From a virus (Duplodnaviria > Heunggongvirae > Uroviricota > Caudoviricetes): a stretch of DNA of 7,624 bases. Where the stretch lies: IMG/VR virus record IMGVR_UViG_2671180828_000013; one strand, 5' to 3'. Below the pieces are notes generated by a model that was not told the origin of the DNA, ran no database searches, and was given only the letters and a program-made list of their open reading frames with translations. A program made the translations under genes and the position numbers. Below are positions 1-7,624 of the stretch, piece after piece (position 1 is the stretch's first letter; each line of letters opens with the position of its first letter).

Positions 1-585
1 TTACGCACCAGCCTTTTTCTGGGTTACATTTAAATGATTAACCTTAGCTTCACATTCTTCATAAATCTCTCTTACAGTATCATCGGGTAACTCTTGTAGA
101 CTCAATGCTAGTGCTCTTTTGACTCCGCTCAATGAGTGCAGTTTTTGAATATCTGTATCAAGCAAAACGGTTAGTAGTTCGGCCCCTTTTCTGATCAATA
201 AGTTGGACAAAATCTCTTGTTCAGATGAAGTTAGCGAGTCCCACGCCCTCATGATGATGGAATCACTATCATCAATTCTTTGTTTTTTTGTTCTTTTTGT
301 TTGTTCAATTGGTTCTTTTTTCATGCTTGGCTCATCACAATAACCATTGACCAGCCACTCCATAGATACATGTTCTCTTTCTGCAATGTTCTGGAGATGG
401 TGCTTTCTTGGTTGTGGTGGCGGCTGATTGTTTCTCCTTTTGTAGTAGTTCTGCAATGTCTGAACGTTTATTCCCCATGCTCTAGCCGCCTCACTTCTCG
501 ATTTGTAACGCTCTGCAAGACGAAAAATCCGTTCGATCACTGGTTCTTTTCCTTCGTCGAGAAAAGAACTGTTTTTCATGTTCAT
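1..585 (-). CDS. Phage CI-type repressor with N-terminal helix-turn-helix domain
   Basis: 194-aa ORF from ATG at 585-583 (second in-frame ATG at 579-577) to TAA at 3-1. AAGGAA Shine-Dalgarno about 9 nt upstream on the minus strand (plus coords 595-600). N-terminal stretch ERIFRLAERYKSRSEAARAWGINVQTLQNYYKRR ... MEWLVNGY fits the HTH pattern of phage CI-type repressors. Divergent to a Ner-like gene as in a Mu-type immunity region. The ORF-track extension to 714 is AT-rich and low-complexity (NNRTNKRTKSR...) and is treated as non-coding leader. Confidence 0.75.
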   Translation of the reverse strand: MNMKNSSFLDEGKEPVIERIFRLAERYKSRSEAARAWGINVQTLQNYYKRRNNQPPPQPRKHHLQNIAEREHVSMEWLVNGYCDEPSMKKEPIEQTKRTKKQRIDDSDSIIMRAWDSLTSSEQEILSNLLIRKGAELLTVLLDTDIQKLHSLSGVKRALALSLQELPDDTVREIYEECEAKVNHLNVTQKKAGA

Positions 586-752
586 GCTCTCAGGTTCCTT
601 TTTATTTATCTTATTGATATTAATAACAAAAACACCGCAAAGAATAAAAAGAACAAAATACCTTGATTTGGTTCTTTTGTTTGTTCTATTATTTACCCGT
701 ACAGATATCCGCACGAATATCCGCGCGGGTAACTTTTTAGAATAGAGGAAGT
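586..752. promoter_or_regulatory. Divergent switch region between repressor and Ner-like genes; expected to hold operators and both promoters
   Basis: 167-bp AT-rich intergenic region between divergently transcribed regulator genes. Contains a tandem direct repeat ATATCCGC (705-712 and 717-724, 12-bp period), a TTATTGATATTAATAA near-palindrome (about 611-626) and a GTTCTTTTGTTTGTTC motif (671-686). Function is inferred from position only. Confidence 0.5.
663..692 (+). promoter_or_regulatory. Candidate sigma70-type early promoter for the Ner-like gene and downstream operon
   Basis: TTGATT (663-668) as -35, 18-bp spacer, TATTAT (687-692) as -10, about 60 bp upstream of the ATG at 753; GAGG ribosome-binding motif at 745-748. 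Hexamer matching by eye only; alternative -10 candidates exist (e.g. TAGAAT at 738-743). Confidence 0.3.
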
Positions 753-5645: not shown

Positions 5646-6196
5646 CCCTGACCCCGCATCAGCGCGCCCTGTTGCAGTTACTGCCTGACGGGCTGGCATG
5701 GGACAAGCGTCCGTCATCCGTACTGGCATCATTATGTCTGGGCCTCAGTCATTCGACAGCGCGTGTATCCTGGACGGGTAAACAGCTGCTTGCCGAGCGT
5801 TTCCCTGACACGTCGCGCCTGCTGCTGGAAGACTGGGAGCGTTATCTCGGGCTTCCCGAGTGTGATATGGCCGGAGCCACCCTCACGGAGCGACAGCGTT
5901 ATGCCGGAAATAAATACCGGATGAAGCCCTCGCTGAACCGTGAATTTTATATCCGGTTTGCGGCGGAGTTTGGTTATCAGATTGACATTCAGCCCTCACC
6001 GGATTCGCAGTGGGTCAGTATTGTCACGATTAACAGTGAAACCGGCTACCGGAATATGAATGTGCTGGATGATATTCTCACGCCGCTGCGTATTTATGAA
6101 GGCGGTGCGCTGGAATGTATTCTGAACCGTTATAAGCCTGCATGGCAGACGTTTATTTACGTTTATGCAAACAGCCATGAAGAGGAGACTATTTAA
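5636..6196 (+). CDS. Mu gp48-like baseplate/tail protein (YmfQ / DUF2313 family)
   Basis: 186-aa ORF; ATG at 5636 overlapping the baseplate J stop (TAA 5643-5645); AGGAG at 5624-5628. N-terminus [26 protein letters not shown] and the size fit the gp48/YmfQ family that follows baseplate J in Mu-like modules. Confidence 0.8.
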
Positions 6197-7077
6197 TGTT
6201 TCATGTTGATAATAATTCCGGCGTGGCGAATATGCCTGCGCTGGCACCGGCGCAGAGTAATACCACAACCTGGTTTACCGAAGGTGACGGACAAAAAGGT
6301 ATCAGCTGGATTGGTCAGGACTGGCTGAATATTCTCCAGGCCGAACTGCTGAATATTCTGGCTGAAGCCAGTATTCAGCCGGATAAGGCGCAGTTAAACC
6401 AGCTTACGCTGTCCATTAAAGCCATTATCGCTGCGAATGCCTTTTCCCGGAAAAATAACCTGAAAGAAATTGCTGATGCCGGTGCGGAGGCCCAGCGTCT
6501 GGCCCGTGGTTATCTTGGTCTGGGGACGCTTGCCACAAAAAACAGTCTTGGTCCCGGTGACGTTAATGCCCTGGCGAAGGATCAGAATCTCGCCGACCTG
6601 GAGAATAAGGGAACCGCCCGTAATAATCTGGATGTTTACAGCAAAAGCGAAGGTGATAACCGTTACCTGCGCAGGGAGCAGAACGGCGCAGACATTCCGG
6701 ATAAAGGGGCTTTTATCGATAACGTCGGTTTACGGGAAACGGTAAACAGGGCGGCGAATGCCCTGCCATCGGACGGCACCGCCGTTGCCGCGAACAGGCT
6801 GGCAAATGCCCACACAATTAATGGTGTTCCCTTTGACGGGACGCAGGATATCACTATCTCATCAGGAACAGTAACCGCCATAAGACTGGGGTCGGTGACC
6901 GCACATATGCCCGGAACATGGGAAAGCTGGGATCTGAATCTGGGGGGCGGCAATGTTCTTACCGGAATTAAAGTACAGGATGTCGGTAAGAATACGGCAG
7001 ATAACGTCGGCGGCGTGTATTACCGGCCGTTGCAGTATCTGTTAAATGGAGCATGGGTGACGGCTGCAAGTATATAA
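6196..7077 (+). CDS. Tail fibre protein (Mu S-like: constant N-terminal part plus a short variable C-terminal part)
   Basis: 293-aa ORF; ATG at 6196 in a TAATG overlap; GAGGAG at 6183-6188. N-terminus [33 protein letters not shown]...[16 protein letters not shown] resembles conserved tail fibre N-terminal domains. Contains a gix-like site at codons about 173-181. TAA at 7075-7077. Confidence 0.8.
6713..6738. other. gix/hix-like crossover site for a Gin/Hin/Pin/Cin-family serine DNA invertase
   Basis: TTATCGATAACGTCGGTTTACGGGAA matches the recalled Mu gix sequence TTATCCAAAACCTCGGTTTACAGGAA at 22 of 26 positions (13 of 14 in the right half). It lies about 175 codons into the tail fibre gene, where the constant/variable boundary sits in Mu S. 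A convergent tail fibre assembly gene follows downstream. Confidence 0.55.
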
Positions 7078-7085
7078 TGATATTC

Positions 7086-7105
7086 AGAAGGCCTTCCGGC
7101 CTTCT
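7086..7105 (+). terminator. Hairpin terminator between convergent tail fibre and tail fibre assembly genes
   Basis: Perfect 8-bp inverted repeat AGAAGGCC (7086-7093) / GGCCTTCT (7098-7105) with TTCC loop, followed by TTATT on the plus strand. Sits in the 31-bp gap between the stops at 7077 and 7109. Confidence 0.6.
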
Positions 7106-7108
7106 TTA

Positions 7109-7624
7109 TTACTGTGGCTGCTCAGGCCATTTAATGGCGTTAAATTCAGCTTCTGTTTTAATGGCGGGTAGTTCCATTTTCTTCACCTGACTGATGTATG
7201 CCATCCATTGGGTAAGTGCTGCTCTGTCTTCATCGCTGATGGTGCCCAGTTGTAGCTCCGTTCTCCAGTCATTAATTTTTTCATATGCCTGATTAAGATA
7301 TGACTGGCGCATTGCTTCCAGTTTTCTTGCGTAGTTAACCGGAATACGGGAGATTATGCCATTATCAAACTTCCAGTTTCCTGAAATATCCGTGCCTTCA
7401 GGGAGTTCATCGACCTCAACCACAGAAAACCCCGCAGGATACAGCGCCGAGGCGTCCTGTGATATTGAGCAGATAACGCCGCTGTCAGGTGTTATGCAAA
7501 GTTTATATTTTTTGGTGAATAATGGCAGGGATTCGTAGAAATCCTTACCATCTTCACTCTGGAAATACTGAACATTATTACCATATGGCATATTTTCAGG
7601 ATAATAACGGGTTATATTTTTTAG
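7109..7624 (-). CDS. Tail fibre assembly protein (Mu U / U'-type chaperone), 5'-partial at the window edge
   Basis: Stop TAA at 7111-7109 (minus). C-terminus LGTISDEDRAALTQWMAYISQVKK ... KWPEQPQ is the classic tail fibre assembly motif, and YFQSEDGKDFYE ... GVICSI ... SGNWKFDNGI matches recalled Mu U features. The minus-strand frame stays open from the in-window ATG (7591-7589) to the window end (LKNITRYYPEN upstream), so the true start probably lies just beyond 7624. Confidence 0.8.
   Translation of the reverse strand, partial: LKNITRYYPENMPYGNNVQYFQSEDGKDFYESLPLFTKKYKLCITPDSGVICSISQDASALYPAGFSVVEVDELPEGTDISGNWKFDNGIISRIPVNYARKLEAMRQSYLNQAYEKINDWRTELQLGTISDEDRAALTQWMAYISQVKKMELPAIKTEAEFNAIKWPEQPQ

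Follow-up and report, generated by a model that had tools for sequence, protein, structure and literature searches.

The stretch of DNA analysed here (the window, 7,624 nucleotides, IMG/VR record IMGVR_UViG_2671180828_000013) begins with a leftward repressor gene, followed by divergently oriented ner and transposase genes, and the subject of this text is the intergenic region between them, at 586-752, together with the adjoining part of the repressor gene. As judged from the open reading frames (ORFs) and Pfam matches, this is the arrangement of the Mu-type c/ner/A module, in which the repressor gene and the ner-transposase genes diverge at the phage left end, and sequence comparison identifies a Mu-like transposable prophage of Escherichia coli, in the form of a deletion derivative, of which the window holds the left end. 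Its first 1435 bases are matched by megablast in 233 of 5,426 complete E. coli genomes, 90 of which carry essentially all of them. In intact relatives, of which the prophage of strain 95NR1 is an example and where the same repressor gene is annotated in identical form, a full transposase and a MuB-like ATPase follow, adjoining a disrupted host gene, and in the record for H26 the insertion is annotated as 'Bacteriophage Mu-like phage'. The product of the ner gene matches Mu Ner (PDB 1neq) with E = 9e-9 and PDB 7f9h with E = 1.6e-8, and is 39-40% identical to the Ner proteins of Mu and D108.

A preliminary description of this DNA had listed four motifs as candidate operator or enhancer elements: GTTCTTTTGTTTGTTC in the intergenic region, its near-copy GTTCTTTTTGTTTGTTC inside the repressor gene, a tandem repeat of ATATCCGC and the near-palindrome TTATTGATATTAATAA. 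A position check found all four in the sequence, the first exactly at 671-686 as described, and the near-copy one base away from the position given for it, at 290-306 rather than 289-305. The list was incomplete, in that it overlooked the promoter context and a perfect 9-bp inverted repeat near the repressor start codon. The 8-mer core GTTCTTTT is present in seven copies in the window, all within 290-1024, against 0.2 expected (none of 200 shuffles reaches seven; the mean in shuffles within 100-nt blocks is 0.10). The copy at 1017-1024, lying in conserved K-E-L codons of the transposase N-terminus and kept in the related locus L009, is probably incidental. Since motif statistics alone gave a mixed picture, the verdict on these elements rests on comparison with relatives. 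Seventeen related control regions, mutually different, were used in the alignments, with repressors 36-92% identical to that of the window; they come from E. coli, Salmonella and Shigella-type prophages, Cedecea, Edwardsiella, Pseudomonas phage VW-6B, Yersinia phage Tongde and IMG/VR contigs. A scan of genome contigs with the repressor alignment yielded a single locus, and viral contigs and protein look-ups provided the set. From the first repressor codons to the ner start codon, the alignment of these loci is almost free of gaps.

The sole promoter-like site within 500-800 is rightward and, by its sequence and conservation, is a sigma-70 early promoter (Pe); the best-conserved positions in the 17 loci include the -35 hexamer and, within the -10 hexamer, A2 and T6. 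Given the positions of these two hexamers (Table 1), the GTTCTTTTGTTTGTTC motif falls inside the promoter spacer. Around the promoter, half-sites of the form GGT-NN-TTTT, represented in the window by GTTCTTTT, are arranged as four one-directional copies upstream of the -35 and two opposed copies in the spacer, and the layout found throughout the family is a long imperfect palindrome with its centre at the -35, which in many relatives reads ATCACC-AAAAAYACC-TTGATTT-GGTRTTTTT-GGTGAT. The spacer motif varies with the recognition helix of the repressor, predicted by AlphaFold2 at residues 41-49. Helices of the type NYY[KR]R are accompanied by GTTCT next to the -35 in 10 loci and by GTTTC in L037; NSYF or KSYF helices go with GGT[AG]TTTTT plus GTGAT in six of six loci, INE[GS]T helices with AATCTTT or ATTCTTT in two of two, and in one locus a hybrid helix, NSYYK, is found with a hybrid operator, CGTTCTTTT plus CGTGAT. 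This tracking of helix and operator is a correlation among related sequences and falls short of proof, and it is what the assignment of these sites to the repressor predicts.

Between the -10 of Pe and the ner ribosome-binding site lies a second kind of element, an array of hexamers of the form (G/A)ATA(T/A)C. ATATCCGC is found twice without a mismatch, at 705-712 and 717-724 (for a 167-nt stretch of like composition, the exact recurrence of an 8-mer within 20 nt has P = 0.05), but the tandem repeat that the two copies had been taken for is really formed by the two inner hexamers of a dyad of ~40 bp, within an array of five hexamers phased at 12 bp, the outer dyad being TTACCCG...CGGGTAA (inverted repeat I7). 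The inner hexamers have the appearance of a direct repeat because the (G/A)ATATC of the window lineage has a self-complementary ATAT core; relatives carry GATAAC/GTTATC in the same register, so that neighbouring hexamer pairs are inverted repeats. The register is kept without gaps in 17 loci, the hexamer columns hold 1.5-1.7 bits of information against about 1.2 for the CG-rich spacers, and the constrained unit is (G/A)ATATCC and not the whole 8-mer. In the A clade the hexamers are invariant except for one C-to-T change in the TTTACC of L030, while the CG-rich spacers between them vary. In E. coli prophages with a repressor only 47% identical and a Ner identical to that of the window (WP_001310454.1), positions 692-752 are unchanged, whereas the promoter spacer and the left flank differ. 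The array is therefore assigned to Ner rather than to the repressor, and 692-745 is a putative Ner operator.

Two E. coli prophage loci with a 176-aa repressor of a different class and an identical Ner (L002 and L003) give megablast matches that begin at window position 592 or 655. The repressor and its operator thus appear to be exchanged as a module by itself, the breakpoints lying at the start codon of the repressor gene or immediately to the left of the -35. Conservation over the whole region is highest in the block GGTAAC-TTTTTAG-(G/A)ATAG at 728-745, which lies directly upstream of the ner ribosome-binding site and may be part of the Ner site or of a leftward promoter; similar strings occupy the same place in Mu (GCTAACTTTATAGATTAC, L032 ~1060-1078) and D108 (GCTACTTTATAGCGTAGC, L033 ~1003-1020). 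The Ner-family protein EnrR is a monomer that binds as two copies side by side on the 6-bp palindrome CTATAG (PMC9023278). The hexamers of the window (GATATC) and of its relatives (GATAAC/GTTATC) match this palindrome in size and symmetry; EnrR, however, is a chromosomal global regulator with an AT-rich consensus, whereas the hexamers described here alternate with CG-rich spacers, keep to a fixed register of 12 bp and follow closely on a single promoter.

On comparative evidence, two of the three intergenic motifs can thus be retained as candidate operator elements. The third, the near-palindrome TTATTGATATTAATAA, is present at 611-626 but is not significant (7-of-8 palindrome, P = 0.14), and L009, L029 and L030 do not keep its symmetry. 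Only TTATC and ATTGAT persist there in relatives. A match to the consensus for integration host factor (IHF), WATCAANNNNTTR, with one mismatch is found at 607-619 and another at 656-668; such matches number seven in the window against 4.6 expected, which is no enrichment, and relatives, read by eye, have from perfect to two-mismatch matches at the equivalent position. Mu has TATCAACGCGTTA, of consensus IHF type, at the equivalent position beside the c ribosome-binding site. For the window, the site at 607-619 is a weak candidate only.

The repressor-type half-sites extend leftwards into the beginning of the repressor gene. The overlooked inverted repeat, GTTCTTTTC-N9-GAAAAGAAC at 543-569 (arms 543-551 and 561-569), occupies repressor codons 6-15, and four half-site-like elements are collinear in 15 loci irrespective of where the start codon lies. 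Third-position entropy is 0 bits at K13 and E14 and 0-0.5 bits over the half-site codons, compared with 0.76-1.95 bits in the folded DNA-binding domain, where synonymous positions are saturated (18 loci). In the same 18 loci the codon equivalent to S6 is always xGT, its second and third positions being invariant while G, S, C or R is encoded. The residues encoded by these half-sites are predicted by AlphaFold2 to be disordered. By this comparison, codons 6-15 are under constraint at the nucleotide level.

A further cluster lies in the codons of a predicted linker of the repressor. The 17-mer at 290-306 encodes KKEPIEQTKRTKK in a disordered, fast-evolving segment, and for this reason the intragenic copy was first judged coincidental. 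Its match to the intergenic motif has P = 0.003 when codon order is shuffled, and against shuffles that preserve local composition the intragenic match has P = 0.017 for the whole gene (in blocks) and P = 0.002 for the linker only. When each locus's own 65-nt promoter operator was aligned to its own gene from codon 23 onwards, the best match fell in the linker in 17 of 18 loci, the linker making up 23% of this portion of the gene; the match exceeded dinucleotide shuffles of the linker in 16 of the 18 at P <= 0.05, and block shuffles of the whole gene in 12 at P < 0.05. Even where linkers cannot be aligned and differ in peptide and in strand, each is similar to the operator class of its own locus: those of the GTTCT class contain AAAGAAC, those of the GGTAT/GTGAT class have ATCACC...AAATACC on either strand, and the linker of phage Tongde holds a 47-nt copy of the entire operator palindrome. 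Mean scores of operator against linker are 11.2 within a class and 9.0 between classes. The GTTC cores are kept in relatives with 88-92% identical repressors though the segment itself is only 76-78% identical. In view of the linker location, of the composition nulls exceeded and of class-specific matches independent of the peptide, the view of coincidence was revised, and the intragenic copy is probably a real auxiliary operator; the cautious suggestion of a functional distant second site is in this way supported by the comparison of linkers with operators, more strongly than the motif alone would suggest. In a comparable test with whole-gene shuffling, the c genes of Mu and D108, used as negative controls, showed no operator-like copy (P about 0.35), so that the feature is not general to Mu-like phages. 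In L009 and L030, with 88-90% identical repressors, an extra AAAAAGAAC is found at the equivalent of window 372-380; it arose by R70K (AGA to AAA), a half-site-like word made by a non-synonymous change.

Table 1. Positions of genes, promoter and candidate regulatory sites in the window (strand left empty where none applies).
Feature	Position	Strand	Details
Repressor gene	1-585	minus	194 aa; ORF; PHROG 3037 'transcriptional repressor', E = 1.5e-58; WP_001056416.1
Intragenic operator-like cluster	285-321		Linker codons; GTTC cores at 290, 303 and 312; 17-mer 290-306
Half-site a, GGTTCTTTT	542-550	plus	Codons G12-P15; left arm of inverted repeat; invariant in A clade
Half-site b	561-569	minus	GAAAAGAAC on plus strand; codons S6-F8
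Half-site-like GGTTCCTTT	593-601	plus	Contains repressor Shine-Dalgarno (AAGGA, minus strand); collinear, conserved in 15 loci
AT-rich segment	604-626		Conserved TTATC 606-610 and ATTGAT 613-618; spans near-palindrome; weak candidate IHF site
Pe operator, left arm	628-662	plus	Four A-tract half-sites, phased roughly 9 bp
Left-arm half-sites	628-636; 639-645; 646-654; 655-662		AAAAACACC; AAAGAAT; AAAAAGAAC; AAAATACC
Early promoter Pe	663-692	plus	-35 TTGATT 663-668; 18-bp spacer; -10 TATTAT 687-692
Pe operator, right arm	670-689	plus	GGTTCTTTT-GTTT-GTTCTAT in promoter spacer, GTTCTAT from 683; contains the 671-686 motif
Putative Ner operator	692-745		TTTACC 692, GATATC 704, AATATC 716, GGTAAC 728, GAATAG 740; exact 12-bp period
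ner gene	753-1001	plus	82 aa; Pfam HTH_35 PF13693, E = 2.5e-19, above curated cut-off; WP_001310454.1
Transposase ORF	1003-2421	plus	Truncated Mu-type transposase fused in frame to DNA-circularization protein
Transposase N-terminal part	1003-1435	plus	144 codons; includes Mu DNA-binding domain PF02316

The repressor itself differs from that of Mu. Its AlphaFold2 model has a five-helix helix-turn-helix (HTH) domain, with helices at 16-24, 30-37, 41-49 (helix 3), 61-71 and 75-80 and a predicted local distance difference test (pLDDT) score of 80-89 across residues 12-82, followed by a disordered linker at residues 85-104 and a C-terminal domain predicted to be all-helical. Foldseek aligned this model with the P22 c2 and 434 repressors at a target-normalised template modelling (TM) score of 0.70-0.74, with a root-mean-square deviation of 2.3-2.5 for P22 c2 and weak E-values (0.05-0.09); Pfam HTH matches fall under the cut-off, and a direct search of the repressor sequence against PDB gave no significant match. 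On this model, the DNA-binding domain would be an HTH of the cI/P22-c2/434 type. Homology to the DNA-binding domain of Mu c was not borne out by BLASTP (E = 0.19), only the C-terminal half (residues 94-191) matching the Mu-c-type PHROG 7148, and no match to Peptidase_S24, of LexA-like autocleavage, was found for the C-terminus in Pfam or NCBIfam. PHROG 7148, a repressor family, also matches residues 3-76 of the window transposase, whose N-terminus resembles that of Mu c (BLASTP E = 4e-5). The repressor thus seems to join a Mu-c-like C-terminal half to an unrelated P22-c2-like HTH, and since the Mu-c-like domain is retained by the transposase N-terminus and not by the repressor, sites would not be shared through homologous domains as they are in Mu.

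Comparison with the c-O1/IHF/O2/O3-Pe-ner-A regions of Mu and D108 (the names O1, O2 and O3 being those of the Mu literature) brings out both likeness and difference. As in these phages, the repressor gene runs leftward, ner and the transposase gene run rightward, and the early promoter is overlaid by repeated repressor-type sites; a dyad-symmetric site, putatively bound by Ner, also lies between Pe and ner, in the position of the Mu and D108 Ner operators. In Mu, CTTTT-initial repeats, as in the O2 sites, also run into the first c codons beside an IHF-consensus sequence. The Ner dyads read from the genomes are AGCTAGCTAAGT-N6-ACTTAGTTAAAT in Mu and CCGTGAGCTAC-N8-GTAGCTCACGG in D108, that is, one inverted repeat of 11-12 bp and of other sequence, in contrast to the five hexamers with 12-bp phasing of the window. 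Moreover, the repressor HTH of the window is P22-c2/434-like where Mu c has a winged helix, the N-terminal domain of the transposase is no longer shared with the repressor, and the c genes of Mu and D108, unlike the window repressor gene, are without an operator-like copy.

On balance, we consider it probable that 586-752, between divergent genes, controls the choice of lysis or lysogeny in a Mu-like transposable prophage, that this control region extends to the left into the repressor gene, and that it works through repressor operators, looping and Ner as follows. The repressor would bind, through its P22-c2/434-like HTH, the GTTCTTTT-type sites over the -35 and spacer and thereby shut off Pe. 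Operator-like clusters are present at a distance from this primary operator (628-689), at 542-601 and 285-321, and the start-codon cluster (~100 bp from the Pe operator) and the linker cluster (~365 bp) would act as auxiliary operators; an oligomeric repressor could bridge the clusters by looping, raising its local concentration at Pe and strengthening repression, and the looped repressor could also obstruct its own gene, resulting in autoregulation. The phased hexamers beyond the -10 of Pe would be the place of assembly for Ner monomers, which would damp early transcription once lytic growth has begun. A more specific proposal, held tentatively and at somewhat less than even confidence, is that the repressor gene carries its own operators in its first 15 codons and in its linker codons, that this operator DNA sets the amino acids of disordered segments (KEP-GSF-KEP at the N-terminus and KKEPIEQTKRTKK, GICGNFGCSGD or SPENTKNTKHGDIRD in the linker), that a change in the immunity specificity of the promoter operator is accompanied by a change in these sites, and that the three clusters are bridged into a looped complex obstructing the gene. 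Auxiliary operators that act by looping are known from lac O2 inside lacZ, gal OI inside galE and the flanking sites FL and FR of the phage 186 CI repressor. By analogy with these, a second, weaker operator copy would lie a few hundred bp away (~365 bp in the window), here in coding sequence; unlike them, the candidate site of the window is in the repressor's own gene, in codons of a disordered linker, and appears to change with the immunity class.

Several observations count against this reading. The loci compared are phylogenetically related to each other, so that the counts overstate independence; the inverted half-sites are spaced by 7 bp at Pe and by 4 or 9 bp near the start codon, an unusual arrangement if the protein were a simple HTH dimer; half-site a, GGTTCTTTT, is unchanged across operator classes; the low third-position entropy could in part reflect a preference for AU-rich codons close to the start of the gene; no minus-strand promoter-like site for the repressor gene was found within 500-800, nor, by eye, a conserved -10/-35 pair in the alignments; and no paper dealing with operators of this family of repressors came up in a literature search. 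To these are added the points that would make the intragenic copy at 285-321 a by-product of a disordered linker rich in Lys, Glu, Arg and Thr and written in A-rich codons, with only the intergenic sites functional. When synonymous codons were permuted with the amino acids fixed, a match as good as that of the 17-mer arose in 25% of trials (P = 0.25, unremarkable); the linker evolves fastest within the gene; the closest relatives do not strictly keep the T-runs of the intragenic site, which are altered in L009 and L029; and no significant match was obtained in four of the 18 loci (L025, L026, L031 and L036). A by-product nevertheless leaves aside the resemblance of unalignable linkers, whatever their peptide and strand, to their own operator class, the 16 loci that exceed composition-matched shuffles, the higher same-class scores, the negative outcome of a like test in Mu and D108 and the GTTC cores kept in a diverged segment, and we hold it to be fairly unlikely.

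The GGT-NN-TTTT sites, or some of them, especially those at 542-601, might instead form a transposition enhancer bound by the N-terminal domain of the transposase, like O1-O2 of Mu, and not be (only) repressor operators. The transposase does retain the Mu DNA-binding domain PF02316 with its likeness to the Mu c N-terminus; the repressor HTH being unrelated, some enhancer must exist that is not shared through homologous domains; and the constancy of half-site a in all operator classes is paralleled by a transposase about 95% identical between classes A and B. The promoter and linker sites, however, track the recognition helix of the repressor and not the transposase, and their placement over the -35 and spacer is what repression would require, which leaves an enhancer as an unlikely account. 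Nor is it expected that the A-tracts upstream of the -35 act simply as curved DNA, an UP-like element or an IHF/H-NS region modulating Pe rather than as sequence-specific operators: the bases after each tract vary with the repressor class and the same words are found inverted in the spacer and in the gene, neither of which curvature alone predicts, and the IHF-like matches are not enriched, so that this explanation is decidedly unlikely in spite of A4-A6 tracts at 628-662 phased at roughly 9-10 bp, as is typical of bent DNA, of the one-mismatch IHF matches described above and of the action of IHF on Pe in Mu (PMC3820752). Very improbable, finally, is a role of the inverted repeats at the repressor 5' end as RNA hairpins governing the translation or stability of the repressor mRNA. 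The stem of 9 bp at 543-569 is perfect, with a loop of 9 nt, and other pairings of element b are available in relatives, either with element c or with element d, which contains the Shine-Dalgarno sequence; covariation, however, supports neither helix, pairing and covariation being no better than in shuffles (the observed pairing is reached by 348 of 500 and 299 of 500), and changes at central positions break a pair in 7-11 of 15 sequences, these one-sided changes of the stem remaining uncompensated.

Outside the control region, the window departs from an intact prophage in the ORF that follows ner. Beyond its first ~144 residues, the product of this ORF matches a protein that carries the annotation DNA circularization protein in intact relatives, of which it contains the C-terminal part, and baseplate and tail-fibre genes lie downstream. 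The fusion junction is at ~1431-1435, with a 5-bp overlap, relatives matching 1-1435 and 1431 onwards as separate parts that in NZ_OZ547136.1 are ~25.6 kb apart; the junction was found in none of the 5,426 complete E. coli genomes. As relatives carry both parts apart and the junction is absent from the E. coli genomes, the prophage of the window is taken as a deletion derivative. Further to the right, a tail-fibre-like ORF (6196-7077, plus strand, without a Pfam match) and the tail-fibre assembly gene after it (7109-7591, Caudo_TAP), which is read from the other strand, form a convergent layout at 6196-7591 that resembles part of an invertible host-range segment such as the G segment of Mu. 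Among the related loci, L004 (the Stx2c-converting phage LC727881) holds a Mu-like phage of the class-B type (class-B repressor WP_000077537.1); the annotation places this insertion within the genome of the Shiga-toxin phage and gives it a target duplication of 4 bp.

About 4% of complete E. coli genomes, among them those of O157:H7 and other Shiga-toxin-producing strains, carry Mu-like prophages of this kind, and the immunity system of these prophages is not known to have been characterised. The comparison yields predicted operator maps for two regulators, and accounts for the occurrence of different repressor and operator modules, and hence presumably of different immunities, in prophages whose Ner is the same. 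A further suggestion is one of overlapping codes, regulatory DNA within a gene shaping the sequence of a disordered linker. If this is true, a self-contained design of auxiliary operators would be added to the known types of phage switch, and conservation in such linkers and N-terminal tails would have to be taken with caution as a signal at the protein level.

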